DNA of 64,000 nucleotides from NCBI GenBank assembly GCA_900318535.1, contig ONKU01000019.1, forward strand, positions 472-64,471, written 5' to 3'. A model generated the notes under the pieces. The model was not told the DNA's origin and ran no database searches. It saw only the letters and a list, made by a program, of their open reading frames with translations. Below, piece by piece: positions 5,565 through 30,586 of the stretch; within the stretch, counting starts at the first letter, position 1, and every line of letters begins with the position of its first letter. The position numbers were made by a program, and so were the translations under genes. The DNA is from an uncultured Prevotellaceae bacterium. GTDB taxonomy: Bacteria > Bacteroidota > Bacteroidia > Bacteroidales > Muribaculaceae.

Positions 5565-6776
5565 TCAGCTCAACGATTCTTCACGCTTGATATTGCTGAC
5601 GAGCGTCCACGTGTAGTGCAGATAGGTCACCAGATAGATGATGGCTGCCACCACGTGGCCGTTACCCTTGTCGCCAAAGAGGTAAATGCCGTAGTAATAC
5701 AGGCTGACGAGCGTCGTGATGACGGCATACTTGATGAAACGCCTGTCCCAGCACGCCAGCAATACCAGCAAAAGGTCCAGCAAATAGGCATAGCGGTCGT
5801 GCATGCTGGGCAAGAGCAATAGCATCGTCCACATGAACCACGCTGCCACGGCATAGAAGCGCTCACGCGCCAGCAAGTCGGTTTTGTGGTTCAGGCAGTA
5901 CCACAGGCCCACAGCCAGCGCTGCCACCGTGAGCATGATGGCAAACCAGCGCATCGACCAGTAGTCATTGCCCACGAGCATCCACAGGCTGGGGAAACTC
6001 ATGTACATTTCCTGATAATGGCCCACCTGTCCCGTATAGATAAGGATGGGTGCCAACAGGCTGCGTCCATAGGCAAACGCCACGATACCCGACAGCCACA
6101 TCACCGCCACGGACAGCAAAATCCACAACAGGCTGAAACGCTTGCTCAACAGGTAATATACACCGATAATCGGCAGGATAAACACGGTCTGCAACTTGCA
6201 GGCAAACGCCAATCCCAGCATCACGAAGGCACCGACAAAGGAGTTGCGGCGCAACAGGTAGAGCGTAGCCAGGCAGCAAGTGGCATACAGCGAGTCGCAT
6301 TGGCCCCAATAGGAAGAATTGAGCATCACTGTGGGTAAGAGCCACACCGCGGCGGCCACCAGCCACGACTGGAAGCGCACACGGCGCACAGCGTCGGCAG
6401 CAGGAGCACCCGACAGGCTCTCCATGCGCACGTCACGATAGATAGCGGCAGCCACGAGCGCCAGCGGGATATCGAACAGCGACGAGAGCAGTTTGTACTG
6501 CACCACAGCCGGCAGGGGCAGATAAGTCATCAGCGAAATCAAGCTCTGGTAAAGCAGGCCATAATCGCCCACCTGACCGGCAAGTGCCGGCAGTCCGCCG
6601 GCCGCCTGGATCTTTTCGAACCACGGTATCAGGCAATAGGTCATGTCCTCGGACACGAAATAACGGCCCGCCCACCTGATGGCCACGCCAACAACAAACA
6701 GCAGCGCCAGCAGCAGCACGTGGCGGTGCCTGTCGATGGCGTCGATGCATTTATTCTCCAGTGATGTCGTTTTCAT
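5565..6776 (-). CDS. Polytopic membrane GT-C fold glycosyltransferase (mannosyltransferase-like)
   Basis: Many TM segments; DY in first loop, WGQCDS, KLQ and HDRY motifs. Start taken at MKTTS (6776). Confidence 0.65.
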   Translation of the reverse strand: MKTTSLENKCIDAIDRHRHVLLLALLFVVGVAIRWAGRYFVSEDMTYCLIPWFEKIQAAGGLPALAGQVGDYGLLYQSLISLMTYLPLPAVVQYKLLSSLFDIPLALVAAAIYRDVRMESLSGAPAADAVRRVRFQSWLVAAAVWLLPTVMLNSSYWGQCDSLYATCCLATLYLLRRNSFVGAFVMLGLAFACKLQTVFILPIIGVYYLLSKRFSLLWILLSVAVMWLSGIVAFAYGRSLLAPILIYTGQVGHYQEMYMSFPSLWMLVGNDYWSMRWFAIMLTVAALAVGLWYCLNHKTDLLARERFYAVAAWFMWTMLLLLPSMHDRYAYLLDLLLVLLACWDRRFIKYAVITTLVSLYYYGIYLFGDKGNGHVVAAIIYLVTYLHYTWTLVSNIKREESLS

Positions 6777-8007: not shown

Positions 8008-8101
8008 TTCATGTCGCGTTATTCATGGTGCAAAATTAGTCATTTTTGGCCTTGTTGAAAATTTTCTTTTTAATAATGTTGTGATTCAGCGCAAAAATGA
8101 C

Positions 8102-8109
8102 TAATTTTG
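8102..8109 (+). promoter_or_regulatory. -7 promoter element for fusA2; divergent hemW element at 8031-8038
   Basis: TAATTTTG on + strand; CAAAATTA at 8031-8038 for the - strand. Confidence 0.6.
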
Positions 8110-8170
8110 CAGGCCGTTTAGCAAACAAAATATCAATTCACTATATAACAACCATTTAACAACAACACTA

Positions 8171-10330
8171 ATGAAGGTTTACAAAACAAACGAGATCAAG
8201 AACATCTCTCTCGTCGGTGGCAAGGGCGCTGGTAAGACCACTCTCACCGAGTCTATCCTCCTTGAGGGCGGCGCAATCAGCCGCAGGGGCACCGTCGATG
8301 GCGGCAACACCGTGAGCGACAACACCCCCGTTGAGAAAGAGTATGGTTACTCTGTTTCCTCTACCGTTTTCTTCGCCGAGAAGAACGGCAAGAAGCTCAA
8401 CTTCTTTGACTGCCCGGGTAGTGACGACTTCGTGGGCAATGCCGTGACCGCACTGAGCGTGACCGACACGGCTGCCCTGGTCGTTGATGGCCGCAATGGC
8501 GTTGAGGTAGGTACACAAAACAACTTCCGCACCGTTGAGCGCCTTGGCAAGCCCCTGATGTTTGTCATCAACCGCCTCGAGGACGAGAAGTGCGACTTTG
8601 ACAACGTATATAACCAGCTGCGTGAGACCTACGGCAACAAGGTTGTTGCCCTCCAGTTCCCCGTGAACGCAGGTCCCGGCTTCAATAGCGTGGTTGACGT
8701 GCTGGCCATGAAGCAGTACACCTGGCCCAAGGACGGCGGCAAGGCTACCGTTAGCGACATTGACGGCGCACACGCCGACAAGGCCGAGGAGTACCGCATG
8801 GCACTGCTCGAGCTCGCTGCTGAGAACGACGAGGAGCTGATGATGAAGTTCCTCGACGAGATGAACCTGACCGAGGAAGAGACCATCAAGGGTATCCGCC
8901 TGGGTATGGTGGACCGCAGTATCTTCCCCATCGTGCTCGTGAGCGCTGAGAAGAACATCGGCACCGACCGCATGCTCGAGATCATGAGCATCATCGTTCC
9001 CGACGTGACCGAGATGCCCGCTCCCAAGAACACCAACGGCGACGAGGTTCCCGCTGACGAGAACGGCCCCGTGAGCGTCTTCTTCTTCAAGACCTCGGTA
9101 GAGAGCCACATCGGTGAGGTTTCCTACTTCAAGGTTATGAGCGGTGTCCTCAAGGCTGGCGCCGACCTGACCAACATGAACCGTGGCAGCAAGGAGCGCC
9201 TGGCTCAGATCAACGTCGTTTGCGGACAGAACAAGACCGCTATCGACGAGATCCACGCCGGTGACATCGGTGCTGCTGTGAAACTGAAAGACGTGCGCTG
9301 CGGCAACACCCTCAACGAGAAGGGCTGCGAGCACATCTTTGACTTCATCCCCTATCCCGCTCCCAAGTATCAGCGTGCCATCCGCGCCCTGAACGAGAGC
9401 GAGACCGAGAAGCTGGGTGCCGTCCTCAACCGCATGCACGAGGAGGATCCCACGCTGTTGATCGAGCAGAGCAAGGAGTTGCGCCAGACCATCGTTTCAG
9501 GTCAGGGCGAATTCCACCTGCGCACCCTCAAGTGGAACATCGAGAACAACGACAAGATCCAGATCGAGTATCAGGAGCCCCGCATCCCCTACCGCGAGAC
9601 CATTACCAAGGCTGCCCGTGCCGACTATCGTCACAAGAAGCAGTCTGGTGGTAGCGGCCAGTTCGGTGAGGTTCACCTGATTGTGGAGCCCTACCGCGAG
9701 GGCATGCCCGAACCCGACACCTACAAGTTCGGCAACCAGGAGTACAAGATGAACATCAAGGACAAGCAGGAAATCCCCATGGAATGGGGCGGTATGCTGG
9801 TTGTCTATAACTGTATCGTTGGTGGTGCCATCGATGCACGCTTCATCCCCGCCATCGTCAAGGGTATCATGGACCGCATGGAACAGGGCCCGTTGACCGG
9901 TAGCTACGCACGCGACGTGCGCGTATGCATCTACGATGGTAAGATGCACCCGGTAGACAGTAACGAAATCTCCTTCCGTCTGGCAGCCCGCAACGCCTTC
10001 TCCACCGCATTCCGCGATGCTAACCCCAAGGTGTTGGAGCCCGTCTATGACGTTGAGATCCTGTTGCCCGGCGACTGCATGGGTGGTGTTCAGAGCGACC
10101 TGCAGGGCCGCCGCGGCATCATGATGGACATGTCGAGCGCCAATGGTATGGAGCGCGTTAAGGCCCGCATCCCCTTGAAGGAGATGTCGAGCTACAGCAC
10201 CGCCCTGAGCTCCATCTCGGGTGGCCGCGCTTCGTTCAACATGAAGTTCTCGAGCTACGAGCTCGTGCCCGCCGACGTGCAGGCTCAGCTGCTCAAGGAG
10301 TACGAGGAGAGCAAGCAGGACGAGGATTAA
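8171..10330 (+). CDS. fusA2: Elongation factor G paralog EF-G2
   Basis: EF-G architecture (YRETI, DYRHKKQSGGSGQFG, LEPVY) with a degenerate G domain (DCPGSDDF, NRLE) and a domain IV insertion; hemW-fusA2-rprXY synteny. Confidence 0.9.
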   Translation: MKVYKTNEIKNISLVGGKGAGKTTLTESILLEGGAISRRGTVDGGNTVSDNTPVEKEYGYSVSSTVFFAEKNGKKLNFFDCPGSDDFVGNAVTALSVTDTAALVVDGRNGVEVGTQNNFRTVERLGKPLMFVINRLEDEKCDFDNVYNQLRETYGNKVVALQFPVNAGPGFNSVVDVLAMKQYTWPKDGGKATVSDIDGAHADKAEEYRMALLELAAENDEELMMKFLDEMNLTEEETIKGIRLGMVDRSIFPIVLVSAEKNIGTDRMLEIMSIIVPDVTEMPAPKNTNGDEVPADENGPVSVFFFKTSVESHIGEVSYFKVMSGVLKAGADLTNMNRGSKERLAQINVVCGQNKTAIDEIHAGDIGAAVKLKDVRCGNTLNEKGCEHIFDFIPYPAPKYQRAIRALNESETEKLGAVLNRMHEEDPTLLIEQSKELRQTIVSGQGEFHLRTLKWNIENNDKIQIEYQEPRIPYRETITKAARADYRHKKQSGGSGQFGEVHLIVEPYREGMPEPDTYKFGNQEYKMNIKDKQEIPMEWGGMLVVYNCIVGGAIDARFIPAIVKGIMDRMEQGPLTGSYARDVRVCIYDGKMHPVDSNEISFRLAARNAFSTAFRDANPKVLEPVYDVEILLPGDCMGGVQSDLQGRRGIMMDMSSANGMERVKARIPLKEMSSYSTALSSISGGRASFNMKFSSYELVPADVQAQLLKEYEESKQDED

Positions 10331-14599: not shown

Positions 14600-14865
14600 A
14601 ATTATTAAATTATCTACTACAAAACAGCCTGCAAAATTAGTCCTTTTTTTGTAATCCTGCAAGTTAATTCTGTTTTTCTTATTGACAACTTGTTACCATC
14701 TTGTCGTGGCCCTCAGTTCCCGTCACGCTCCAAAAAGGTAAAAAATCATAACCGGGAGTCGAAAAAAATGCCATGTCGCTTTGATAATAAATAATATTAT
14801 TACCTTTGCCCGCAACGAGCATCATGTAACAGATTATTCAACAATAACCTCAATTCACTTCAGCA

Positions 14866-16212
14866 ATGAAAATCATCATCGTAGGGGCCGGAGCCATCGG
14901 AGCTCATTTGGCCGACCTGTTCTCCAAAATCAAGCAGGACATCGTCATCATTGATGACGACGAGGAAAAGCTGGAGCGCATCCAGGCCGACAGCGACCTG
15001 ATGACCATCCAGGCATCGACCAACACTCCCATCAAGGCCCTGAAAGATGCCGGAGTGAAGCACGCCGACCTGTTCATTGCGGTCACGCGTGACGAGAATC
15101 TGAACCTGAGCCTGTGCGTGCTGGCCCGTTCAATGGGCGCGCGGCAGACGGTGGCCAAGGTGGAGAATGCCGAGTTTACCGACCCCCAGATTACCGAAGC
15201 CTTCAAGGCGGCAGGCATCTCATCCATCATCGACCCCGACAACCTGGCGGCGCTTGACATTGTCAATGGCATGAAGCTGACATGGGCCCGGCAACGGTGG
15301 GACGTGCACGGCGGCCTGCTCACGCTGCTGGGCATCAAGGTGAGGGAATCGTGCAAAATCCTCGGCCAGCCGTTCAAGGAAATCTTCAAGCCCGATTCAC
15401 CCTACCATGTGGTCGCCATCAAGCGCGGCCAGTCAACCATCATGCCATCGGGCGACGACATGCTCATGCCAGGCGATTTTGTCTATTTCATGACCACCAG
15501 GGAATATGTTCCCAACATGAGGGTGATCATGGGAAAGGAAAACTACCCAGACGTGAAAAACGTCTTTATCGTCGGTGGCGGCAAGACGGCCGTCAGGGTC
15601 GTCAACATGCTGCCGAACGACATGAAGGCCAAAATCTTTGAAAACGACCCGCGGCGCTGCGAAGAACTTATCGACCTGGTAGACACCAGCCACGTGATGA
15701 TCATCAATGCCGACGGCCGCTCGGTGGCCAACCTGATGGAGGAGAACATCAAGTCGGCACATGCGTTTGTCGCCCTCACCGGCAATGCCGAGGCCAACAT
15801 CCTGGCATGCCTCACTGCCAAGCAGTTGGGGGTGCGCAAGACCATCGCCATGATCGAGAACATGGACTATATGGACATTGCCGGCAATGTGGACATCGGG
15901 ACCATCATCAACAAGCAGGCATTGACCGCCAGTCACATCTATCAGCTGCTGCTCAACGGCGATGTGCGCAACATGCGCAACCTGATGACCGTCAATGCCG
16001 ACGTGGCCGAGTTCACCGCCCGCCCCGGCTCGCGCATCACACGCAAAAAGGTTCGAGACCTGGATTTCCCGCGCGAGGCCGAATTGGGCGGATTGGTGCG
16101 TGACGGAAAGGGCATTCTTGTCAATGGCGAGACACAGATCCAACCTGGCGACATCGTTGTGGTCTTCTGCCACGGCACTGAGATCAGCCGCATCGAGAAA
16201 TTTTTCATCTAA
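14866..16212 (+). CDS. trkA: Trk system potassium uptake NAD-binding subunit
   Basis: Two RCK domains (IIIVGAGAIG, IVGGGKTA) plus C-terminal RCK_C; promoter TACCTTTG 14801-14808. Confidence 0.93.
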   Translation: MKIIIVGAGAIGAHLADLFSKIKQDIVIIDDDEEKLERIQADSDLMTIQASTNTPIKALKDAGVKHADLFIAVTRDENLNLSLCVLARSMGARQTVAKVENAEFTDPQITEAFKAAGISSIIDPDNLAALDIVNGMKLTWARQRWDVHGGLLTLLGIKVRESCKILGQPFKEIFKPDSPYHVVAIKRGQSTIMPSGDDMLMPGDFVYFMTTREYVPNMRVIMGKENYPDVKNVFIVGGGKTAVRVVNMLPNDMKAKIFENDPRRCEELIDLVDTSHVMIINADGRSVANLMEENIKSAHAFVALTGNAEANILACLTAKQLGVRKTIAMIENMDYMDIAGNVDIGTIINKQALTASHIYQLLLNGDVRNMRNLMTVNADVAEFTARPGSRITRKKVRDLDFPREAELGGLVRDGKGILVNGETQIQPGDIVVVFCHGTEISRIEKFFI

Positions 16213-16223
16213 CCCCATCCACG

Positions 16224-17681
16224 ATGTTCAACAAGCTATTGATTTGCAAGATTCTGGGCACGCTGCTGTGGATTGAGGCCGCCTTCATGTCACTGGGGCT
16301 TATCCTGGCCATTTGCCACATGGAGAGCGACATCGTGGCCTTTGCGGTCACGGTGGGCGTGACGCTGCTGGTAGGCACGGCGTTGAGGCTGACTGGACGC
16401 CACGCGACCAACACGTTGAGCCGCCGCGACGCCTATCTGCTGGTGACCGTCGTGTGGATTGCGTTTGCGCTCTTCGGGATGTTACCGTTCCTCATCGGCG
16501 GATATATCGACCATGTGACCGATGCCTTCTTCGAGACGATGTCGGGCCTGACGACAACCGGGGCAACCGTCATCGATAAGGTCGAAGGCTTGCCCCACGG
16601 CATACTGTTTTGGCGCTCGTTGACGCAATGGATTGGCGGTTTGGGAATCGTGTTCTTCACCATCGCCGTCATCCCGTCGTTTGTGGGCGGCTCCATCAAG
16701 GTATTTGCCGCCGAGGCCACCGGTCCCATCAAGAGCAAGATGCATCCGCGCCTCACCACCACGGCCAAGGCCCTATGGGGAGTTTATATCCTGTTGACGG
16801 CCGTATGTGCCTTTTGCTTCTTCATCTTCGGCATGAGTCCGTTTGACGCTGTGAACTACGCCATGACGGTAACGGCGACAGGCGGCTTTGCCACCCATGA
16901 CGCCAGCACCGGTTACTTCAACAACGCCGCCATCGACTACACCGCGATTGTGTTCATGTTCCTCTCGGGCGTGAGCTTCGCTTTACTCTATGCCAGCCTG
17001 CTGCAGGGCAAAATCAAGCAGTTGTTCAAGAACGCCGAGTTCCGTTTCTACACTGCATTGACGTTGGCGGCCACTGCCGTGATTGTTTATTTCCTGCTGC
17101 GCTACAACCATTACACCTTTAGCGACGCCATCCGTTACGCCCTGTTCCAGGTAGTGTCCTTTGTCACCACAACTGGCATGTTCAACGAGGACGCTGCCCA
17201 GTGGCATCACATCACCTGGGTGGTACTGAGCCTGTGCATGTTCTTTGGCGGATGTGCAGGCAGCACTGCCAGCGGATTCAAGTGCGCACGCGGGGTCATA
17301 GCCCTGAAAATCCTGCGCAACGAGGTTCGCCGCATGGTTCACCCCAAGGCGCTGCTGCCCGTCAAGGTCAACAACACATCGGTCCATTCCCCCAGCCAAA
17401 TCACGCTGCTGGCATTCTTCATTGCCTACATTACCCTGTGTTTCACGGCCTATTTCATCATGATTCTTGCCGGTGTGGACAGCACCAACTCCATCACCAT
17501 CGCCTTGAGCTGCGGCAGCAACGTGGGTCCCACTCTGGGACTGGAAATCGGCCCGACGATGTCATGGAGCATCCTGCCGCCACTGGTGAAATGGATTCTT
17601 TCAGGACTGATGCTCATGGGGCGTCTCGAGATCTTCACCGTGCTGGTCATTTTCTCGCCGTCGTTCTGGAAAAACCATTGA
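16224..17681 (+). CDS. trkH: Trk system potassium uptake membrane protein
   Basis: FETMSGLTTTGA, QWIGGLG, TGGF, TTTG, NVGP, MGRLE pore loops. Confidence 0.93.
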   Translation: MFNKLLICKILGTLLWIEAAFMSLGLILAICHMESDIVAFAVTVGVTLLVGTALRLTGRHATNTLSRRDAYLLVTVVWIAFALFGMLPFLIGGYIDHVTDAFFETMSGLTTTGATVIDKVEGLPHGILFWRSLTQWIGGLGIVFFTIAVIPSFVGGSIKVFAAEATGPIKSKMHPRLTTTAKALWGVYILLTAVCAFCFFIFGMSPFDAVNYAMTVTATGGFATHDASTGYFNNAAIDYTAIVFMFLSGVSFALLYASLLQGKIKQLFKNAEFRFYTALTLAATAVIVYFLLRYNHYTFSDAIRYALFQVVSFVTTTGMFNEDAAQWHHITWVVLSLCMFFGGCAGSTASGFKCARGVIALKILRNEVRRMVHPKALLPVKVNNTSVHSPSQITLLAFFIAYITLCFTAYFIMILAGVDSTNSITIALSCGSNVGPTLGLEIGPTMSWSILPPLVKWILSGLMLMGRLEIFTVLVIFSPSFWKNH

Positions 17682-17814: not shown

Positions 17815-18069
17815 ATGAAAAAGGATATCCATCCCAGCAACTATCGCGAGGTTGCGTTCAAGGACATGTCTAACGAGGAGGTCTTCATCACCCGCAGCAC
17901 GGTGAACACCAAGGAGACCATCGAGATCGACGGTACCACCTATCCCCTGGTGAAGCTCGAGATCACCAACACGTCGCACCCCTTCTTCACCGGCAAGCAG
18001 AAGCTCGTCGACACCGCAGGTCGCGTGGACAAGTTCATGCAGCGCTACGGCAACCGCAAGAAGAAATAA
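17815..18069 (+). CDS. rpmE2: 50S ribosomal protein L31 type B
   Basis: MKKDIHP...[21 protein letters not shown] with no CxxC; promoter TACCTTTG 17729-17736. Confidence 0.95.
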
Positions 18070-18083
18070 GACGAAACATCACC

Positions 18084-18101
18084 GCCGTGAGCGCTCACGG
18101 C
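18084..18101. repeat. Perfect 18-bp palindrome
   Basis: gccgtgagc|gctcacggc. Confidence 0.7.
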
Positions 18102-18111
18102 AGGTTCTACA

Positions 18112-18153
18112 AGACACGGCGACGCGCCCTTCCCAATCAAACGGGAGGGCGCG
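18112..18153 (+). repeat. Direct repeat copy 1, a terminator-like hairpin
   Basis: agacacggcgacgcgcccttcccaatcaaacgggagggcgcg; differs from copy 2 by a single-base indel. Confidence 0.9.
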
Positions 18154-18226
18154 TCACTGATATTTACAAGAAAATAACTACCTTTGCGCCATCATTATCA
18201 TATTAACCATCAGTCAAGATATCAAT

Positions 18227-19726
18227 ATGGGAGTTTATTACACTAAACTACGCACTTATTTTCAACGGGCAGCCGTAGCCCTTGCCACCCTGGCGATCCT
18301 GCTGTTGCCGCAGCAGCTCAAAGCGCAGGACTGGTTTGGAGACGTGGACCTGGACGGCAAAGTCAACATCGGTGATGTGACCTCGCTAATCGACCACCTG
18401 CTGGCAAATGATCCCTTCACACCGTTTAATCCTTACGAGACCCGCCTGACGGCCAAGGGATATGGTGCCGTGGGCGATGGTGTGACCGATGACACACAGG
18501 CACTGGAGAACCTGTTTGATGCGGCATACCGCATGCACAAGGCGGTATTCTTCGAGCCCGGGACCTATCTCATTCGCCGCGCGTTAACATTGCGCACCGG
18601 CATGGAGATTTATGGCGACAACGCAACCATCAAGAAGCGGGAAGCCGTCACCACGTCATTGACCCAGGCGGCATCTAAGCATCAGACCTACATCGACGTC
18701 GCCGATGCCAGTGGATTTAACGTGGGCGACATGTTTGTCATCATTGAGCCTAACTATGCCAATGAGTGCACATTCGGCATCGTCACTTCCATAGAGGGAA
18801 ACCGCATCAATTTCTCCAATGTCATCAGCGACACGCAGAACAAATTCCCCGGGTGCGTCCGCAATTACGTCTCTGGCCGACAAGTGACCACCTCATTCGC
18901 GCTGCTGCGCTCCTGGAGCCCGCGTTTTGACTGCGACGGCGTGTACATCCACGATATCATCCTGGACGGCAACCGGAATAGTTCCGAACCCAAGGTTTGG
19001 TCCAACAGCTGCATCCACCTGGACGCCTATTACCCGCCTAACGGTTACACCGGTAATACAGGAATCGAATATAGGCACATCCAGCGAAATCTCACCGTCA
19101 ACAATGTGACCATCAAGAACTCGCCACACGACGGCATTAGCGACCAGAGCATGGGCGGCCTGCACGTGAGCAACTGCACCATCGAGAATCCCGCGATGCA
19201 CGGGGTGCACATGGGCACGAGATACTCAGGTGGTGTGATTACCGACAACAAGATGACTGGTAGCGGTGCATCGGGAGCCGGTGTTTTCCTATGCCAGAAT
19301 GTCGTCAACGTGATTGTCGAGAACAACGAGATTTCGAGTTTCAATCATGGTGTCAGCGACGAGGAATTTGCTACCTGCGGCAAGTACACCATTGTCCGCA
19401 ACAACGTGTTCAAGAACATCACCAGCTATGTGTTTGACTTCCTGAAGGCCAGCGCCACCTCGCGCGGCGGCGGACACATCATTACCGACAACAGCATCGA
19501 GGGGTTGAAGGCCATGATGTTCTCAGGCAAATACCTGGACTATGTCACCATCGCCAACAACACGGTGTCCAGCGTCACTACCGCTCCCACCGCCATCGTC
19601 AGCATTACCAATAGCGACAATGTCGTCATCTCGGGCAACAATCTGCCGTCGGGTACAACGATTGCACAGCCCGTGAGGAGCACCGACACGACCAACCTGC
19701 TCGACAACGGCAATTCCTGGAATTGA
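18227..19726 (+). CDS. Secreted protein: single dockerin-like Ca-binding repeat plus Pectate_lyase_3-like right-handed beta-helix
   Basis: Signal peptide ending LKA; GDVDLDGKVNIGDVTSLIDHLL; YGAVGDGVTDDTQAL, FFEPGTY; repeated beta-helix coils; own -7 element at 18179-18186. Confidence 0.75.
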   Translation: MGVYYTKLRTYFQRAAVALATLAILLLPQQLKAQDWFGDVDLDGKVNIGDVTSLIDHLLANDPFTPFNPYETRLTAKGYGAVGDGVTDDTQALENLFDAAYRMHKAVFFEPGTYLIRRALTLRTGMEIYGDNATIKKREAVTTSLTQAASKHQTYIDVADASGFNVGDMFVIIEPNYANECTFGIVTSIEGNRINFSNVISDTQNKFPGCVRNYVSGRQVTTSFALLRSWSPRFDCDGVYIHDIILDGNRNSSEPKVWSNSCIHLDAYYPPNGYTGNTGIEYRHIQRNLTVNNVTIKNSPHDGISDQSMGGLHVSNCTIENPAMHGVHMGTRYSGGVITDNKMTGSGASGAGVFLCQNVVNVIVENNEISSFNHGVSDEEFATCGKYTIVRNNVFKNITSYVFDFLKASATSRGGGHIITDNSIEGLKAMMFSGKYLDYVTIANNTVSSVTTAPTAIVSITNSDNVVISGNNLPSGTTIAQPVRSTDTTNLLDNGNSWN

Positions 19727-19768
19727 TTTAGCTATAGCACGATAACAGCGCACAGGAACATTCCCAGC

Positions 19769-19809
19769 AGACACGGCGACGCGCCCTTCCCATCAAACGG
19801 GAGGGCGCG
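19769..19809 (+). repeat. Direct repeat copy 2
   Basis: agacacggcgacgcgcccttcccatcaaacgggagggcgcg. Confidence 0.9.
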
Positions 19810-19843
19810 CCGCTTGTTTAATCGCACAGCCAGTCGAAATCAG

Positions 19844-19969
19844 TTAACAATAATTGTTCTCGCACTCTTTACCGCAGTTACAGCACTAGTGATGCCTTTG
19901 AACGTCATGATACCGAAACGGCTGCTGCCATTGGAGGAATTGACGATATTTATCCTTGAGCCAACTCAT
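19844..19969 (-). pseudogene. 5' remnant of a second DUF3667-family gene
   Basis: Translates MSWLKDKYRQFLQWQQPFRYHDVQRHH*CCNCGKECENNYC*, paralleling the N-terminus of the adjacent gene (LKKLYRRFKAWQ...YCNNCGYEYTGNFC). Confidence 0.7.
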
Positions 19970-19988
19970 CCTATTCTCTACTTATATC

Positions 19989-21086
19989 TTAGCTAATCAT
20001 TCTCAACAAGACACCTGATCTAACTAGCTCCATAGCGATGCAGATGATGATGAACGACACGAGGAACAGCAATGGCAAAGCCATCGCACGCAGCCACCCT
20101 CGTTCACGCCACAACTTGCGGTTAATAACGTCGGCCACCGATAACATCAGACCAGAACACGAAATGCAGAACACGCTTAGCATCCTGAGAAGCCACTTCT
20201 CTTCTACAACTTTGGTCGCATATTCAGGTTTTGTAGTAACACTATACCATAAAGCAATCGCGAAGAAACACAACACGATGACCATGACCATCAACAGCAC
20301 CCGCCACACGGTGCCCCACCAGCCGTAGCCAAACACCTGCTTGTAGTTCACAGTGACAATGACAGGCATCACCAATAAGGAACTTTCTATCATTATATCC
20401 TCAAAGCCGCTACTGCCCGCTTCATAGCCCAAATCTATTCCGGCCAGCTTGACAAAAGTAGAGATGATGAACACCCACACAAAGTACTGCGTTGTCATGA
20501 ACACCTGGATAAAGAAGCCTTGAGGTACTGTGTGCCGTGGATTGCGCGGCGAGTGCCTGAACACCAGCCAGGTGGGAAGTATCAGCAACGAGAAGATAAA
20601 CAGGTACAACCACTCAATATGATTTCCGATCCATTGAGACACAAAATCAAAATAGTATTGCCATCCTGTTGACGTGATAGCCCCAGGATCATATTCAATA
20701 AGTGCCGCCCAGTATTCAGGAAAGATGGCTTTACCGACAAGAAACAGGATTACCGCCACGAGCACAAGCATCTTGACGGGCGGAAAGCTCGACTGCCATT
20801 TGCCGTTGATATAATCGCTGATGAAATAGCCCGGACGCCACATCAGCTGCCACAACGAGTAGGGCAACGAGCGGCCACCCAGGCCCCACACGTCCATCAC
20901 GCTATGGCGCACCACATTCCACGTGACGCGGCCTGCTGTGGCTCGTTGTCCGCACACGGGGCAAAAGTTCCCTGTGTATTCATATCCGCAATTGTTGCAG
21001 TACCGTGGCACATCAGCCACAGGATAATCGGCGGGATGAACTTGCCAAGCCTTGAAACGACGATATAATTTCTTGAGACTAAACAC
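19989..21086 (-). CDS. DUF3667-type zinc-ribbon membrane protein
   Basis: CNNCG...FCPVCGQ, LMWRPGYFISDYINGK, multiple TM; GTG start 21086 overlaps the upstream stop. Confidence 0.75.
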   Translation of the reverse strand: MFSLKKLYRRFKAWQVHPADYPVADVPRYCNNCGYEYTGNFCPVCGQRATAGRVTWNVVRHSVMDVWGLGGRSLPYSLWQLMWRPGYFISDYINGKWQSSFPPVKMLVLVAVILFLVGKAIFPEYWAALIEYDPGAITSTGWQYYFDFVSQWIGNHIEWLYLFIFSLLILPTWLVFRHSPRNPRHTVPQGFFIQVFMTTQYFVWVFIISTFVKLAGIDLGYEAGSSGFEDIMIESSLLVMPVIVTVNYKQVFGYGWWGTVWRVLLMVMVIVLCFFAIALWYSVTTKPEYATKVVEEKWLLRMLSVFCISCSGLMLSVADVINRKLWRERGWLRAMALPLLFLVSFIIICIAMELVRSGVLLRMIS

Positions 21087-21696
21087 CGTCGCTTTTGGGT
21101 GCAGGTGCAGTTTCAGGCTCAGGTGCAGGCTCAACTGCAGGCTCAACTGCAGCAGTAGCATTGCGCACACGGCGCTCGGCAAGGTACTCTTGCAGGCTGG
21201 TGAAGTTGAACAGCAGCAGGCAGATGCCTGTCATCAGCACAACGGTGGAAACGTTCTCGCGCAATGACGACACCATGAGCGACAGCACGCCGCACAGCAC
21301 TACGACCAACGGGCAGATGTAATACCATCCCTTGACGTTCAGGCTCTTGCGGGACAGCATCAGGTAGATGACATGGAAGAGTCCCAACACGATGAGCAGG
21401 ACGGCCATGAGCAGCTGCAGGATGCCGTCAAACTTGTCGGGTTTCAATATCATCACCAGACCAAAGCACAAGCCTCCCACAGCGGGCAGCACCCCCATGT
21501 AGTCGACTCCGGTGCGGGCATCGGTATGGCGGACGGCAACCATAATCAGATAGACGACAGCCGGCAACATGAACATCGCACCCATCACGCGACACCCCCA
21601 CAACAGGATATCAGGCACGCTGTGGAAAACCATCAAGATAACACCGGCAAGCAGCAAAATCACATTAGTGAGCAGGTTAATACTGACCTTTTTCAT
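21079..21696 (-). CDS. DUF308/HdeD-like membrane protein
   Basis: About 6 TM helices and a Pro/Glu-rich tail. Confidence 0.6.
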   Translation of the reverse strand: MKKVSINLLTNVILLLAGVILMVFHSVPDILLWGCRVMGAMFMLPAVVYLIMVAVRHTDARTGVDYMGVLPAVGGLCFGLVMILKPDKFDGILQLLMAVLLIVLGLFHVIYLMLSRKSLNVKGWYYICPLVVVLCGVLSLMVSSLRENVSTVVLMTGICLLLFNFTSLQEYLAERRVRNATAAVEPAVEPAPEPETAPAPKSDGV

Positions 21697-21804
21697 TGTT
21701 TTCTGTAAGGTTAATGGTCACTTGTTAATAATTTTTCCACAAAAATAGCTTAAAAACAGTTATATTCAAAAAAATGACGCAAAAAAGTATTATCTTTGCA
21801 GTGA

Positions 21805-22710
21805 ATGCAAGAGAAACGCATGCACATACTCGCCATCATCAACCCCGTGTCGGGGACCAGCAACAAGGACAAGATTCCTCGGCTCATCGACACGGTCGTG
21901 GAACCCGACCGCCATGAAGTGAGCATCATGGCCACCGAATACCCCGGCCATGCCCATGAAATCGCCGAACAGGCTGTCAAGGACGGCTTCGACGTGGTCG
22001 TCGCCATTGGCGGTGACGGTACCGTCAACGAGGTGGGCAGCGCCCTGTGCGGCACACCCACAGCGCTGGCCATTGTGCCGTGCGGCTCGGGCAACGGCCT
22101 GGCACGCCACCTGCGCATCTCGATGAACGCCAACCGGGCCCTGCAGGTGCTCAACAACGGCGTGGTGGGCAAGTTTGACTACTGCACCGTGAACGGCAAG
22201 CCTTTCTTCTGCACCTGCGGCATGGGATTTGACGCCACGGTGAGCTACAAGTTCTCCAACGAGGGCACCCGCGGCTTTATCACCTACATCAAGACCGCCT
22301 TGACCGAGTATATCAAGTACAAGCCTCAAGAATACATCATCGACATCGACGGCATGAGGATGAAGGAGAAAGCCTTTGTCATCGCCTGCTGCAATGCGGC
22401 ACAATACGGCAACAACGCCTATATCGCACCGCGCGCGACCATGCAGGACGGCATGCTCGACCTGACGGTGATGCACCCGTTCAACTTTGTCGAGAGCCCG
22501 CTCATCGGAGCCCGCCTGTTCCTGCGCCAGCTGGGACACGACAACCACGTGAGCATCTACCGCGGCAAGCGTGTTACCATTGAGCGCAGCCACGACGACA
22601 TCCTCCACATCGACGGAGATCCCGTTATGATGCCCGCCAGGGTCGTCATCGAGAACGTGAGACGCGGCATCAACATTCTGGTGCCGCCCACCCTGCCCGA
22701 CGACGTCTGA
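21805..22710 (+). CDS. YegS/BmrU-like diacylglycerol kinase family lipid kinase
   Basis: IINPVSG, GGDGTVNEV, GSGNGLAR, QYGNNA, HIDGD. Confidence 0.9.
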   Translation: MQEKRMHILAIINPVSGTSNKDKIPRLIDTVVEPDRHEVSIMATEYPGHAHEIAEQAVKDGFDVVVAIGGDGTVNEVGSALCGTPTALAIVPCGSGNGLARHLRISMNANRALQVLNNGVVGKFDYCTVNGKPFFCTCGMGFDATVSYKFSNEGTRGFITYIKTALTEYIKYKPQEYIIDIDGMRMKEKAFVIACCNAAQYGNNAYIAPRATMQDGMLDLTVMHPFNFVESPLIGARLFLRQLGHDNHVSIYRGKRVTIERSHDDILHIDGDPVMMPARVVIENVRRGINILVPPTLPDDV

Positions 22711-22711
22711 T

Positions 22712-22746
22712 AACCAATAGCCAAAACCTAACGACTAACAACAAGA
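22712..22746 (+). repeat. Heptamer tandem array
   Basis: AACCAAT AGCCAAA ACCTAAC GACTAAC AACAAGA. Confidence 0.55.
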
Positions 22747-22753
22747 TATAGAA

Positions 22754-24712
22754 ATGAGTTATCTGAAATTTGACAAAAACCTGATGATCAATTTGGAGCA
22801 GTCACTGCCCAAAGAGATGCTGCGAACCAACCAGTCGGGAGCCTACCACTGCACCACCATCGTTGGCTGCAACACCCGCAAGCAGCATGGCTTGCTGGTC
22901 ATCCCTGTTCCCGAGCTCGACGACAACAACCATGTGCTGCTGTCCTCGCTCGACGAGACCGTCATCCAGCACGGTGCGCCGTTCAACCTGGGACTGCACC
23001 GCTACAAGGGTGACACCTACAGCCCCAACGGCCACAAGTACATCCGCGAGTATGACTGCGAACGCGTGCCCACCACCACCTATCGCGTGGGCGGCGTCAT
23101 CCTCAAGAAAGAGAAGATCTTTATCACCCACGAGAACCGCATCCTCATCCGTTACACGCTGGTGGATGCCCACTCGGCAACGACGCTGCAGTTCAGGCCC
23201 TTCCTGGCCTTCCGCAACGCCAATGACCTGTGCGTGGAAAATGCAGTCGCCAGCCGCGACTACCAGGAGGTGGCCAACGGTATCGCCACCTGCATGTACA
23301 ACGGCTATCCCACCCTGTACATGCAGATGAACCACAAGCCCCGCTTCGTGTTTGACCCGCACTGGTACAAGAACATCGAGTATACCAAGGACCAGGAGCG
23401 CGGCATCCCCTACAGCGAGGACCTGTACGTGCCCGGCTACTTCGAGGTCGAGATCAAGAAGGGCGAGCCCCTCATCTTCTCGGCAGGTGTCGAGGAGGTG
23501 AACACCCGCACGCTCACCAAGATGTATGAAGACGAGATCAAGCCGCGCACACCGCGCACGAGCTTCTATAACTGCATGAAGAACAGCGCCAAGCAGTTCT
23601 ACATCACCAACAAGGAGGGTCACTACCTGCTGGCCGGCTATCCCTGGTTCAAGATCCGCGCCCGCGACGAGTTCATCGCTCTGCCGGGCTGCACCCTGTC
23701 GGTACACCACCGCCAGGACTTCGAGCTCATCATGGATACCGCACAGCGCGCCCTCTACGACTGGATGCGCGACGGCACGCTCGACAAGCATCTCGACGGC
23801 CTGGAACTGCCCGACATACCCCTGTGGGCCATCTGGGCCGTACAACGCTATGCCCACGACCTCAATGCCGAGGCCGCCCGCGAGCGCTATGGCCAACTGG
23901 TCAAGGACCTGATCAACTTCATTGCTGACGGCCATCATCCCAACCTCAAGTTGGATCCTAACGGCCTTGTCGCTACCGACGGCACCAAGCGTCCCGTCTC
24001 GTGGATGAACAGCACTCACCCCGACGGCACGCCGCTCATCCCCCGCACGGGTTATCTGGTCGAGTTCAACGCCTTGTGGTACAACGCCCTCAGATTTGCT
24101 GTGGAAGAGCTCTTCGGCACTGTTGAAGAGGAGAAAGACTTTGTTGAGCGCTGCAACGCCATTGCCGAGAAGTGCAAACCCGCCTTCATCGAGACGTTCA
24201 TGACCGATTACGGCTACCTGTACGACTACGTGAACGGCAGTTACACCGACCTGAGCGTGCGTCCCAACATGATCATCGCCGCCGCTACCGACTACAGCCC
24301 GCTGGACCGCCGCCAGCGCAAACGCATCCTTGACATCACCACCCGCGAGCTGCTGACTCCCAAGGGACTGCGTACCCTGAGCCCCAACAGCTACGGCTAT
24401 ATTCCCTGGTATCTGGGCACCCCCGAGGAGCGCCAGACGGCCTACTATGCCGGCAGCGCACGTCCCTGGCTGATGGACTTCTACAGCAAGGCCTACATCC
24501 GCGTCTTCGGCTTGAACAGCATCTCGTTCATCGAGCGCATGATGATCGGCTTCGAGGACGAAATGAAGGAAGGCTGCATCGGCTCGCTCAGCGAACTGTA
24601 TGACGGCAACCCGCCGTTCATCGGACGTGGCGCCGTGAGCTTCGCTCCCAACGTGGGCGGCATCCTGCGCGTGCTTCGCACCTTCAAGAACCTTCACATC
24701 ATTGACGAATAA
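22754..24712 (+). CDS. Glycogen debranching enzyme / amylo-alpha-1,6-glucosidase (GH133-like)
   Basis: RKQHGLL N-terminal domain, AGYPWF, SVRPN, GLRTLSP, GSLSELYDG. Confidence 0.85.
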   Translation: MSYLKFDKNLMINLEQSLPKEMLRTNQSGAYHCTTIVGCNTRKQHGLLVIPVPELDDNNHVLLSSLDETVIQHGAPFNLGLHRYKGDTYSPNGHKYIREYDCERVPTTTYRVGGVILKKEKIFITHENRILIRYTLVDAHSATTLQFRPFLAFRNANDLCVENAVASRDYQEVANGIATCMYNGYPTLYMQMNHKPRFVFDPHWYKNIEYTKDQERGIPYSEDLYVPGYFEVEIKKGEPLIFSAGVEEVNTRTLTKMYEDEIKPRTPRTSFYNCMKNSAKQFYITNKEGHYLLAGYPWFKIRARDEFIALPGCTLSVHHRQDFELIMDTAQRALYDWMRDGTLDKHLDGLELPDIPLWAIWAVQRYAHDLNAEAARERYGQLVKDLINFIADGHHPNLKLDPNGLVATDGTKRPVSWMNSTHPDGTPLIPRTGYLVEFNALWYNALRFAVEELFGTVEEEKDFVERCNAIAEKCKPAFIETFMTDYGYLYDYVNGSYTDLSVRPNMIIAAATDYSPLDRRQRKRILDITTRELLTPKGLRTLSPNSYGYIPWYLGTPEERQTAYYAGSARPWLMDFYSKAYIRVFGLNSISFIERMMIGFEDEMKEGCIGSLSELYDGNPPFIGRGAVSFAPNVGGILRVLRTFKNLHIIDE

Positions 24713-24726
24713 ACCTATCAAGAGAT

Positions 24727-25989
24727 ATGAAAGCATTAATGTTCGGATGGGAGTTCCCTCCCCACATTCTGGGAGGCCTGGGAACAGCAAGTTACGGCCT
24801 CACTAAGGGCATGTGGCAAAACGGTGACATGGACATCACCTTTGTCATTCCCAAGCCCTGGGGCGACGAGCCCAAGGATTTTGCCAACATCATCGGCGCG
24901 AACTGCACGCCCGTTGCATGGCGTGATGTGGACTGGGACTATGTGCAGGCCCGCATCGGCAATGTGATGGATCCGCAGCTGTACTACAACCTGCGCGACC
25001 ACATCTATGGCGACTTCAACTACATGAGCACCAACGACCTGGGGTGCATCGAGTTCTCGGGACGCTATCCTGAGAACCTGCTCGAGGAGATCAACAACTA
25101 CAGCATCGTGGCAGGCGTCATCGCCCGCACGGTGGACTGCGACGTCATCCACAGCCACGACTGGCTCACCTATCCTGCCGGCATCCATGCCAAGCAGGTG
25201 ACTGGCAAGCCCCTGGTGATCCACGTGCACGCCACCGACTTTGACCGCTCGCGCGGCAATGTCAATCCCACGGTGTTCAGCATCGAGAAGGACGGTATGA
25301 ACCATGCCGACCACATCATCACCGTGAGCAACCTCACGCGCCGCACCGTTATCGAGAAATACGGCATCAGCCCCGACAAGGTGACCACCGTGCACAACGC
25401 CGTGGAGCCCCTCAACGAGGAATTGCTCAACCTGGAGGCTCCTCCGGGCAAGACGAACAAGGTCATCACCTTCTTGGGCCGCATCACCATGCAGAAGGGC
25501 CCCGAGTACTTTGTTGAGGCTGCCGCACAGGTGCTGCACAAGGTCAACAACGCGCAATTTGTGATGGCCGGCAGCGGCGACATGATGGACAAGATGATTC
25601 GCCTTGCTGCCAAGCGCGACATCGCCGACCGTTTCCACTTCACGGGCTTCCTGAAAGGCAAACAGGTGTATGAGATGCTGGCAGCCAGCGACGTGTACAT
25701 CATGCCGTCGGTCAGCGAGCCCTTCGGCATCTCGCCGCTCGAGGCGATGCAGATGGGCGTACCCTCGATCATCAGCAAGCAGAGCGGCTGTGCCGAGATC
25801 CTGGACAACGTCATCAAGATCGACTACTGGGATACCAATGCCATGGCCGATGCCATCTACAGCATCATCAAGTATCCCGCAATGTACAACGAGTTGCGCG
25901 ATCAAGGTCTTGCCGAGGTCAACCAGATCACCTGGGACAAGGCTGGCGCCAAGGTCATCAACATCTACCGCAACCTGATCAACCGTTAG
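24727..25989 (+). CDS. GT4 glycosyltransferase, probable alpha-glucan synthase
   Basis: WEFPPHILGGLG, HSHDWLT, QKGPEYF, PSVSEPFGISPLEAM. Confidence 0.85.
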   Translation: MKALMFGWEFPPHILGGLGTASYGLTKGMWQNGDMDITFVIPKPWGDEPKDFANIIGANCTPVAWRDVDWDYVQARIGNVMDPQLYYNLRDHIYGDFNYMSTNDLGCIEFSGRYPENLLEEINNYSIVAGVIARTVDCDVIHSHDWLTYPAGIHAKQVTGKPLVIHVHATDFDRSRGNVNPTVFSIEKDGMNHADHIITVSNLTRRTVIEKYGISPDKVTTVHNAVEPLNEELLNLEAPPGKTNKVITFLGRITMQKGPEYFVEAAAQVLHKVNNAQFVMAGSGDMMDKMIRLAAKRDIADRFHFTGFLKGKQVYEMLAASDVYIMPSVSEPFGISPLEAMQMGVPSIISKQSGCAEILDNVIKIDYWDTNAMADAIYSIIKYPAMYNELRDQGLAEVNQITWDKAGAKVINIYRNLINR

Positions 25990-26034: not shown

Positions 26035-27534
26035 ATGAAAGCGATTTGTTTTTATTTCCAGATTCATCAGCCGTTCCGCCTGAAACATTACCGTTTCTTC
26101 GACATCGGCAACGACCACTACTACTATGATGACTTTGCCGACGATGACATCATCACGCGCATCGCACAGCGGTCTTATCTGCCCGCCAACCAGATGCTGC
26201 TCGACATGATCAAGGAAAACGGCAAGAAGTTCAAAGTGGCCTTCTCCATCAGCGGCACCGCACTGGAGCAGTTGGAACAGTATGTACCCGAGTTCATCGA
26301 CTCGATGAAGGAACTGGCCGCCACCGGCTGCGTCGAGTTCCTGAGCGAGACCTATGCCCACAGCCTGTCGTCGCTCTACGACCCCGACGAGTTTGTGGCC
26401 CAGGTCAAGGCTCACGACGCCAAGATCTACCAGCTCTTCGGCCAAAAGCCCAAGGTGTTCCGCAACACCGAGCTGATCTATGACGACGACGTGGCCTCGA
26501 TGGTCTATGCCATGGGCTTCAAGGCCGCCATCACCGCCGATGCCAAGCACGTGCTGGGCTGGCGCTCGCCCAACTTCCTGTACAGTTCGGCTTCGGCTCC
26601 CAAGCTCAAGCTGCTGTTGAAGAACGGCAAGCTGAGCGACGACATTTCGTTCCGTTTCAGCAACCCCGAGTGGGCATCCTATCCCCTCACGGCCGACAAG
26701 TACATCAACTGGATCAACGAGTTGCCCCAGGAGGAACAGCTGGTCAACCTGTTCATGAACTACGACGCGCTGGGCGAGCTGCAGCCTCGCGAGAGCGGCA
26801 TCTTTGAGTTCATCAAGGCACTGCCCCGCTTTGCCGCCGAGCACGACATCCAGTTCTGGACTCCCAGCGAGGTGGTTTCCAAGTTCAAACCCGTTGCCGA
26901 ACTCGCCGTGCCCTATCCCATGTCATGGACCGACGAGGCCCGCGACACCAGCGCATGGCTGGGCAACACCCTGCAGCAGGAGGCCGTCAGGAAACTGTAC
27001 TCCATCGGTGAACGCGTGCGCCTGTGCACCGACCGCCGCATCAAGCAGGACTGGAACTACCTGCAGGCCAGCGACCACTTCTTCTACATGTCCACCAAGC
27101 ACAACGACGACGGCTCGGTACACAGCCACTACAGCCCCTATGACTCGCCCTACACCGCGTTCACCAACTACATGAACGTGCTGAGCGACTTCATGACACG
27201 CGTCGAGGAGCAGTACCCCGCCAGCATCGACAACGAGGAGCTGAACTCGCTGCTGCTCACCATCCGCAATCAGGAGCAGGAGATCGAGAAGCTGCACCGC
27301 GAGGTAGAGATGATGCGCAACAACATCGTCCAGGACACCACCGGCGACTTCCCCATCGACGAGGAGCCCGCTCCCGAGCCCGAACCCGTCAAGGAGGAAA
27401 AACCCGCTCCTGAGAAGAAGAAACCGGCTGCCAAAAAGCCCGCGGCCAAGAAACCCGCTGCTAAGAAGCCTGCAGCCAAAAAGCCTGCAGCCAAGAAGCC
27501 TGCAGCCAAGAAACCCGCTGCAAAAAAGGCATAA
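26035..27534 (+). CDS. GH57 family alpha-amylase/glucanotransferase with a Lys/Ala-rich tail
   Basis: FQIHQP, ETYAHSLS, FRNTELIY, MNYD; C-terminal KKPAA x7. Confidence 0.88.
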   Translation: MKAICFYFQIHQPFRLKHYRFFDIGNDHYYYDDFADDDIITRIAQRSYLPANQMLLDMIKENGKKFKVAFSISGTALEQLEQYVPEFIDSMKELAATGCVEFLSETYAHSLSSLYDPDEFVAQVKAHDAKIYQLFGQKPKVFRNTELIYDDDVASMVYAMGFKAAITADAKHVLGWRSPNFLYSSASAPKLKLLLKNGKLSDDISFRFSNPEWASYPLTADKYINWINELPQEEQLVNLFMNYDALGELQPRESGIFEFIKALPRFAAEHDIQFWTPSEVVSKFKPVAELAVPYPMSWTDEARDTSAWLGNTLQQEAVRKLYSIGERVRLCTDRRIKQDWNYLQASDHFFYMSTKHNDDGSVHSHYSPYDSPYTAFTNYMNVLSDFMTRVEEQYPASIDNEELNSLLLTIRNQEQEIEKLHREVEMMRNNIVQDTTGDFPIDEEPAPEPEPVKEEKPAPEKKKPAAKKPAAKKPAAKKPAAKKPAAKKPAAKKPAAKKA

Positions 27535-30547: not shown

Positions 30548-30586
30548 AAACAAGCGGTGGAGCCAAATTGGCTCCACCGCTTGTTT
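30548..30586. terminator. Bidirectional terminator
   Basis: Perfect inverted repeat aaacaagcggtggagcc / ggctccaccgcttgttt. Confidence 0.9.

Follow-up and report, generated by a model that had tools for sequence, protein, structure and literature searches.

A beta-helix gene between two copies of the rpmE2 terminator in a rumen Bacteroidales genome: a probable old insertion at a recombination hotspot

Downstream of rpmE2, the gene for ribosomal protein L31, a 64,000-nucleotide (nt) stretch of DNA from an uncultured Prevotellaceae bacterium (contig ONKU01000019.1; the whole stretch is called the window here) carries one gene for a secreted beta-helix protein between two copies of a hairpin-forming repeat. 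A preliminary description of the window had put this unit forward as a candidate for an undescribed system, namely an enzyme-free cassette captured through a repeated palindromic element or mobilised in trans. The unit is referred to below as the cassette, its gene as the cargo, the hairpin as T (left and right copies T_L and T_R) and the position after rpmE2 as the slot. Comparison with related loci suggested that the region is probably an old accessory-gene insertion in a recombination hotspot and not an active cassette.

The cassette, its hairpins and its neighbours

The features of the locus are listed in Table 1. Positions 18112-18135 and 19769-19792 were identical at all 24 nt, and the match reached 18153 and 19809, respectively, with 41 of 42 nt identical, one extra A in the left copy and a start-to-start spacing of 1657 nt, which confirmed the 42-bp hairpin repeat with one indel of the preliminary description. 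The true duplicated unit, which includes a degenerate U-tract tail, was about 52-55 nt long (AGACAC...GCTTGTTTA), and over this length T_L and T_R were 89% identical in the window and 93% identical in strain L017. Self-BLAST of the 64 kb detected no dispersed intergenic repeat other than the T_L/T_R pair. For two repeat motifs (32 and 17 nt, with up to 3 mismatches), the window match count was not reached in any of 100 shuffles. Both copies folded as a GC-rich hairpin, with stems at 18121-18133/18143-18155 and at 19780-19809, and the rpmE2 3' untranslated region (UTR) was predicted to be very stable (-46 kcal/mol, z-score -6.5). The perfect 18-bp palindrome, also described previously, was present upstream of T_L and was kept at the same position across related loci, with a compensatory variant (GTGTGCGCACAC) in locus L147. 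Two consecutive strong hairpins in the 3' UTR of a ribosomal-protein gene are unusual. A search of Rfam returned no match for either hairpin, the 18-nt palindrome or T.

The content of the cassette was as previously described, with a -7 promoter, a gene for a secreted beta-helix protein of 499 amino acids (aa) and a short trailer. No second gene was found between the repeats by gene calling, and the other listed open reading frames (ORFs) overlap the cargo. The encoded protein matched PF12708 (Pect-lyase_RHGA_epim; E = 9e-15) and PF13229 (Beta_helix; E = 1e-10), had a weak dockerin-like N-terminus and, as judged by eye, a signal peptide. Its matches in the PDB were restricted to the N-terminal region of GH55 beta-1,3-glucanases and PfbA-type proteins. 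The cargo is a probable secreted glycan-active enzyme. Contigs assembled from four runs catalogued as RNA (metatranscriptome or RNA-Seq) contained the cassette region, as would be expected if the cargo is expressed. The TACCTTTG box, which matches the Bacteroidetes TAnnTTTG consensus, was kept in all orthologous cassettes (the window, L017, L136, L128, L034, L025 and L027). The trailer and the junction CCCAGC|AGACAC were common to the window and L136. In the gene calls and the Pfam annotations of the neighbours, no recombinase gene was found inside the cassette, in agreement with the preliminary description, or within about 8 kb of it.

On the left, the slot is anchored by rpmE2, the product of which lacks a CxxC motif (by eye) and is of type B. 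On the right, the decayed gene fragment mentioned in the preliminary description was found to encode residues 1-44 of a second DUF3667 paralog. The placement of T_R would allow it to terminate the cargo as well as the DUF3667 gene, which converges on it. Past the DUF308-like gene lies the conserved right flank, with diacylglycerol kinase-type and glycogen genes.

Table 1. Positions of the features at the rpmE2 slot of the window
Feature	Position	Strand	Basis
rpmE2 (84 aa, ribosomal protein L31); conserved anchor on the left of the slot	17815..18069	+	Pfam Ribosomal_L31, E = 1e-27
Perfect 18-nt palindrome (pal) GCCGTGAGCGCTCACGGC, first of two hairpins in the rpmE2 3' UTR	18084..18101	.	Sequence; folds together with T
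T_L, left copy of the predicted rpmE2 intrinsic-terminator hairpin, degenerate U-tract; cargo promoter directly after	18112..18166	+	Folding; orthology to the empty-site hairpin
-7 promoter box TACCTTTG of the cargo	18179..18186	+	Sequence, conservation
Cargo, ORF of the 499-aa right-handed beta-helix protein	18227..19726	+	Pfam
42-nt trailer, cargo stop codon to T_R	19727..19768	+	Sequence
T_R, right copy of the predicted terminator, intact tail CCGCTTGTTTA	19769..19820	+	Terminator scan call; folds on both strands
Remnant of the DUF3667 paralog nearest rpmE2; codons 1-44 left, rest deleted	19847..19975	-	tblastn, 75% aa identity to L130/L152, E = 7e-24
DUF3667 membrane protein gene, hypervariable right neighbour of the slot	19989..21086	-	Pfam DUF3667
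DUF308-like membrane protein gene	21079..21696	-	Pfam, locus comparison

The repeat as the rpmE2 terminator, and the age of the cargo

Relatives of the window were collected by exact-protein look-ups, by a scan of a genome collection with L31, which yielded at least 3 close relatives, and by a metagenome scan with the rpmE2 3' end. This gave about 60 loci (designated by L and three digits), all from one genus-level group of uncultured Bacteroidales of the rumen; in NCBI records the near relatives are labelled Muribaculaceae or Prevotellaceae metagenome-assembled genomes (MAGs). In all these relatives the hairpin T was located about 45 nt past the rpmE2 stop codon, followed by a GCTTGTTTTT-type tail, and it was present as a single copy where the site was empty. 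Across 30 alleles, compensatory substitutions were observed at 5 of the 10 pairs of the stem. T_L was positionally orthologous to the single hairpin of the relatives. At the empty sites of L130 and L133, the one T present was 100% identical to T_R. T_R passed the terminator scan and kept the ancestral tail; T_L was not called, because its T-run is decayed where it abuts the cargo promoter. No copy of T away from the rpmE2 locus was found in 1.88 Mb of related sequence.

A GC-rich stem-loop with a U-tract at the 3' end of a gene, compensatory change and a conserved position are the features of an intrinsic terminator, and all were present here. Judged from these features, the repeat is the locus's own rpmE2 terminator. 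As a resident, single-copy hairpin with covariation in its stem and without a copy elsewhere in the related sequence, it is therefore not a repetitive extragenic palindromic (REP)-like or mobile palindromic element, and the repeated, mobile palindrome of the preliminary description is replaced by a terminator confined to this locus. Independent insertions of a high-copy REP-like element, or an assembly artefact, would accordingly be a most improbable source of the pair. The repeat is palindromic and GC-rich as REP elements are, but only two copies were present in the 64 kb and none lay off-locus in the related loci, the left copy shared its position with the relatives' single hairpin, and the arrangement was reproduced in more than 20 independent assemblies.

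The cargo was found in 22 of the 22 same-species contigs that were read (contigs carrying the exact DUF3667 protein), and no same-species empty site was seen among them. The empty locus L140 was considered as such a site, with 99% and 100% aa identity in its diacylglycerol kinase (DAGK) and glycogen-debranching enzyme (GDE), and was rejected as a recombination mosaic. The GC content of the cargo was 0.53-0.55, compared with 0.55-0.60 in the adjoining genes. Because the cargo was present in all same-species contigs, had orthologs in the same slot and had a flank-like GC content, its insertion is considered to be old, and in this species the cassette is apparently fixed. The left junction T-tail|GCAAGAAAATGACTACCTTTGC was common to all beta-helix carriers. 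The closest homolog of the cargo outside the slot (62% aa identity) was located in L030 between recG and ligA; as only about 40 nt and 4 nt separate it from its neighbours, a flanking hairpin would not fit there. The cassette was not found at any other locus. The expectation in the preliminary description that a cargo fixed at this locus in all relatives would speak against a cassette held in part: the cargo was present in all same-species contigs read, with orthologs of as little as 72% aa identity in the same slot of other species.

Three other readings of the repeat pair were considered and set aside. The near-identity of T_L and T_R was rejected as a mark of recent insertion, as T was 80-100% identical between species and T_R equalled the T of the empty loci L130/L133. 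Concerted evolution of the two copies had been suspected from L114 and L115; within genomes T_L and T_R were 83-97% identical, which is similar to the range of T between species, and gene conversion is not needed. A tandem duplication as the first step had been suggested by a CAAGA after T_L in the window, but the ancestral junction in other carriers was GCAAGA and the match is probably due to chance.

Variable content of the slot and recombination at the terminator

Comparison of the loci gave as the ancestral arrangement a single GC-rich intrinsic terminator, T, on which rpmE2 and a DUF3667 gene converge. From tblastn maps the slot was empty in most species (e.g. L010, L011, L015, L016, L035, L036, L123, L130 and L140), with further empty-site loci in L142 (with L123), L133 (with L130), L152 and L121. 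The beta-helix gene was found in the slot of at least 6 lineages at 72-100% aa identity (the window, L017, L136 at 90%, L034 at 87%, L128 at 82%, L025 at 81-84% and L027 at 72%). An S41 peptidase gene was present in L013/L147/L149, L114 and L115 (64-66% aa identity between types), and an element resembling miniature inverted-repeat transposable elements (MITEs) just after T in L009, L012 and L014. Empty sites and different cargo in relatives, the comparison suggested by the preliminary description, were thus both found (empty, for instance, in L123/L142, L130/L133, L035, L036 and L140; S41 peptidase elsewhere).

The MITE-like element was located directly after the rpmE2 terminator tail (L009, 8350-8560; L014, 8350-8540; L012, 8360-8590; also L117), had terminal inverted repeats (ACGTGAGTTCGATGA...) and internal GAGACGCAAAATCTTGCGTCTC hairpins; its orientation in L009 was the reverse of that in the sister locus L014. 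The DUF3667 neighbour was 35-63% identical in aa in most related species and 85-91% in L123/L142, L130/L152 and L140, and 0, 1 or 2 tandem paralogs were present per locus, with the truncated remnant in the window; these genes look like diversifying or fast-turnover surface or membrane genes. rpmE2 was nearly invariant at the nt level, its last 60 nt included, while the adjoining genes were about 80% nt identical (window compared with L009-L036, L114 and L115). This near-invariance might indicate either extreme codon constraint or repeated homogenisation by interspecies recombination. Upstream, a trkA-trkH pair (window 14866-17681, between a CpsB-like gene and rpmE2) was present in only some species (the window, L009, L013, L014, L035 and L036), and represents a second presence/absence polymorphism at the rpmE2 locus.

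Unexpectedly, other cargos at the rpmE2 terminator were likewise bracketed by a duplicate of each genome's own T, with boundaries that differed between events. For the beta-helix cargo of the window and its orthologs the duplication covered about 52 nt, from AGACAC to the tail. For the S41 cargo it covered 61-67 nt in L013/L147/L149, where it begins inside the upstream palindrome, 55-58 nt in L114, where it runs 20 nt past the tail, and 35-40 nt in L115. In L062, a distant relative (L31 83% identical in aa), a low-GC gene for a 312-aa lipoprotein-like protein on the opposite strand was bracketed by a duplication of 47-54 nt of the genome's own rpmE2 terminator (8276-8329 and 9494-9547), the second copy being a better match inverted (94%) than direct (87%). 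These four events at rpmE2 terminators (beta-helix, two S41 types and the L062 lipoprotein gene) fit one pattern. When 1.27 Mb of Bacteroidales rpmE2 loci were scanned for hairpin-type repeat pairs 0.3-6 kb apart, four loci with pairs were detected, three of which (the window, L013 and L062) had them at the rpmE2 terminator. No description of a duplicated terminator as a recurrent cassette boundary was found in the literature searched for it, which is weak evidence of novelty. L062 also carried two further short repeat pairs upstream (2778-3442). In L079, which is a MAG of distant Bacteroidia, a direct repeat of 51 nt (94%; 6501-6551 and 8098-8148) brackets a gene for a 473-aa ATPase-like protein about 140 nt past the rpmE2 terminator; this repeat is not the terminator, and the locus is another single-gene repeat-bounded insertion.

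This architecture bears on the active, enzyme-free mobile cassette, which would leave as a 1657-bp circle through its hairpin repeats and be recaptured at palindromic sites, possibly by a recombinase acting in trans (integron-, pdif- or Xer-like). The direct repeats enclose exactly one promoter-plus-gene unit, the empty sites resemble precise excision products, two or three unrelated cargos share the architecture at the same terminator, and arms of 13-14 nt with a loop of 7-8 nt recall the geometry of tyrosine-recombinase core sites. We nevertheless regard such a system as improbable. The repeat is a species-specific resident terminator whose compensatory stem variation is unlike a recombinase binding site, it had no copy elsewhere in the related sequence, and the duplication boundaries varied between events (52, 55-58 and 61-67 nt). 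The cargo was present in every same-species contig read, its orthologs were confined to one slot, and no other copy of the cassette was found; the mobility proposed in the preliminary description was not borne out. No excision or circle junctions were seen among the assembled (Logan) contigs. Two 'skip' contigs, X15 (18128>19800) and X24 (18072>19800), were considered as excision products and rejected, their loop or spacer differing from the window strain, and are empty-site alleles of other lineages. Contigs ending at both repeats, considered as evidence of circles, are a de Bruijn-graph effect and uninformative on circles.

The same recurrence could also be read as that of a decayed integrative element, in which an integrase island had inserted at the rpmE2 terminator with a terminator copy in its attP, and all but the cargo was lost, leaving the hairpins as attL and attR. 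It is typical of att sites that a conserved gene regains its 3' end from direct repeats of 50-67 nt, and the pattern was seen repeatedly at one target. However, each carrier examined (6 or more beta-helix lineages, L062 and 3 S41 lineages) had a single-gene insert with a short leader and trailer and without an integrase remnant, and the gene calls contained no integrase within about 8 kb. Parallel complete decay would be needed in every lineage, and this origin is held to be improbable too.

Exchange of the slot content was examined from the flanks. T_R of L136 was 100% identical to the single T of the empty locus L152, although the L136 cassette was 88% nt identical to that of the window. The right flank of L136 was 96-99% identical to the empty loci L035, L121, L130 and L152, and unrelated to the right flank of the window, while the empty loci L130/L133 shared the left spacer and T of the window exactly, joined to that other right flank. 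The cassette is joined to differing right-flank haplotypes exactly at T_R, which fits exchange by homologous recombination with T as a short right-hand arm. The left haplotype, the cassette and the right haplotype therefore assort independently, switching at T and within the conserved flanks. L140, with an empty slot, was 97-100% nt identical to the window over 21.7-25.5 kb and 78-92% identical on both sides. This block of 3.8 kb (window 21722-25500), in which the diacylglycerol-kinase-like and glycogen-debranching genes lie, is clearly a tract of recent recombination between species. By sequence comparison, then, an insertion immediately after the predicted terminator, the terminator on both of its sides, a predicted terminator kept by each transcription unit and a shuffling of slot alleles between related genomes were shown. 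The evidence favours presence and absence being shuffled by ordinary homologous recombination rather than by an active cassette system.

Elsewhere in the window, a 27-nt inverted repeat (93% complementary; 8093-8119 and 14622-14648) with a TAATTTTGCAG promoter-like motif flanks a 6.5-kb block, which in related loci contains genes for a histidine kinase, a response regulator, an acyltransferase and a CpsB-like protein. Self-BLAST detected two imperfect palindromes (1820-2009, about 190 nt, 67%; 8029-8111, 83 nt, 72%) and one near-perfect palindrome (30548-30586, 39 nt, 97%). A unit of 570-580 nt was repeated in tandem at 5-1603, in three copies with 75-87% identity, and 15-nt repeats of the type AAGAA(A/G)CC(C/T)GC at 27418-27528 would encode a KKPAA-like low-complexity tract.

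Proposed history of the slot and comparison with known systems

In the history favoured here, a unit of promoter plus beta-helix gene entered right after the U-tract of T in an ancestor of several rumen Bacteroidales species, leaving about 52 nt that span the whole terminator on both sides of the insert, so that rpmE2, the cargo and DUF3667 each still face a predicted terminator. The slot alleles (empty, beta-helix, S41 peptidase and MITE-like) would then have been exchanged by ordinary homologous recombination, in part as the flank comparison showed. The nearly invariant rpmE2 together with T may act as the left homology arm, and the right arm may be either the conserved genes 2-3.5 kb away or, where DUF3667 is too divergent to pair, the 52-nt copy of T. 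A T-bounded cassette would thus carry its own minimal right homology arm and could enter any genome with rpmE2-T, and it could be lost by recombination between the two copies of T. Such recombination had been predicted to leave one terminator, which matches the empty-site alleles (T of L130/L133 being identical to T_R). Since the T-bounded allele is the empty site plus an insertion within T, its gain and loss might occur by ordinary recombination in any genome with rpmE2-T.

For the duplication itself, one-sided homology-facilitated illegitimate recombination is offered tentatively, as a possible but doubtful origin. A donor fragment with rpmE2, T and the cargo would pair through rpmE2. At its far end, microhomology would mediate the joining to a point just upstream of the recipient T, so that the resident T would be kept downstream. 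The motif (CA)AGACAC, found before T and at DUF3667 3' ends, is a candidate for this microhomology, and L027 resembles the donor arrangement that would be required. That the whole hairpin was duplicated each time might reflect selection for the insulation of all three units, or an ascertainment bias towards transferable cassettes.

Several points weigh against this account. The flank gene trees were star-like, so that a single gain with losses is not separable from repeated transfer and gains and losses are uncountable. L027 and L025 hold the cargo without a recognisable T_R (L027 lacks one and the right hairpin of L025 is only vaguely similar), so that a carrier need not have the duplication, which may be ancestral or derived. 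In L034, T_R has diverged but still belongs to the T family. The illegitimate-recombination origin rests on a motif of 6-9 nt, and by itself would not explain duplication of the full hairpin in three or four independent events. No event was caught, assembled contigs being incapable of showing rare excision products or recombination intermediates, and we know of no natural transformation in these uncultured organisms.

Duplication of the complete hairpin with variable end points would be accounted for by template switching, in which a replication fork or repair complex stalls at the hairpin, copies foreign DNA, re-enters upstream and copies the hairpin twice, in the manner of microhomology-mediated break-induced replication (MMBIR) or fork stalling and template switching (FoSTeS), with later spread by homologous recombination. 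The high predicted stability of the hairpins (-46 kcal/mol and a z-score of -6.5 for the rpmE2 3' UTR) would suit such stalling. Direct evidence for it was lacking, no donor copy of the cargo lay nearby (the closest paralog found, 62% identical in aa, was in another genome), and to our knowledge the process is not documented for gene-sized insertions in bacteria; we consider it unlikely, if somewhat less so than an active cassette or a decayed island. It is similarly unlikely that duplicated-terminator cassettes represent a general route of gene acquisition in Bacteroidales, in which the duplicate T would be selected as a portable homology arm and insulator, or in which a trans-acting activity would target strong terminator hairpins and duplicate about 50-67 nt.

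If T does serve as a portable arm, single-gene cassettes could move between species whose downstream flanks cannot pair. The accessory genes at the rpmE2 slot are secreted enzymes and surface proteins. Were the pattern general, an ultra-conserved gene with its terminator would act as a landing pad beside a hypervariable neighbour while the transcription units stay insulated, and a duplicated terminator would be a simple, recombinase-free signature by which accessory genes exchanged recently or repeatedly could be found in Bacteroidales of the gut and rumen. For the window, the candidate undescribed system would be clarified as an old, fixed insertion at a recombination hotspot.

With respect to known systems, integron cassettes and attC sites, integrase-less attC clusters included, are also single-gene units bounded by hairpin-forming repeats without a recombinase inside. 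In contrast to attC sites, which are 57-141 nt long and imperfect, with R and L boxes and extrahelical bases, the repeat here has a perfect stem of 11-13 bp and a loop of 7-8 nt in a terminator of about 35 nt with a U-tract, and no GTTRRRY or RYYYAAC core was found by inspection at either cassette boundary. Integron cassettes are usually promoterless, with an integrase and attI nearby, whereas here the cassette has its own conserved -7 box, no integrase was called within about 8 kb, and the repeats are putative copies of a host terminator with varying duplication boundaries. The Xer-dependent pdif modules of Acinetobacter plasmids are likewise recombinase-free, with short palindrome-like boundary sites and differing contexts, but have conserved XerC/XerD sites that are usually inverted, while the copies here are direct repeats with compensatory variation at a single chromosomal locus. 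Islands bounded by attL and attR at the 3' ends of tRNA or other conserved genes resemble the cassette in that the target transcription unit regains its 3' end from a direct repeat tens of nt in length; they differ in that here no integrase or remnant was found in about ten carrier lineages and the insert is a single gene. REP elements and bacterial interspersed mosaic elements (BIMEs) occur as many dispersed copies, compared with two in 64 kb here; beyond the rpmE2 slot, 1.88 Mb of related loci yielded no copy. Unlike a transposon or MITE, the cassette has ends (CAAGAAAATAAC... and ...GGAACATTCCCAGC) that by inspection are not inverted repeats, and a flanking duplication of 52-67 nt that varies.

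Published cases of homology-facilitated illegitimate recombination are reported to give deletions in the recipient, and are not known to duplicate part of the anchor. The cassette is otherwise similar to these cases, from Acinetobacter, S. pneumoniae and P. stutzeri, in having one anchor (rpmE2-T) and a non-homologous far side, a short GC-rich junction motif and a junction position that varies between events, the mechanism being inferred here; microhomologies of 3-10 bp are used in this process (PMC6382021). Closest among the systems compared were minimal mobile elements, as in Neisseria, which are defined by flank-mediated homologous exchange (PMC3787668), and hotspots free of mobile genetic elements (MGEs), the turnover of which reportedly proceeds through homologous recombination in the core genes that flank them (PMC5635113). 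All class features that were tested were found here, namely varied content between the same conserved flanking genes (rpmE2 to DUF308/DAGK/GDE), no mobility genes inside with one called gene per cassette, and mosaic identity with incongruent haplotypes (L140, L136, L130/L133). From its sequence, then, the locus behaves like a minimal mobile element or MGE-free hotspot (PMC3787668, PMC1797815, PMC5635113), from which it differs in the duplicated terminator of the left neighbour, a possible 52-nt right arm that recurs with unrelated cargos.

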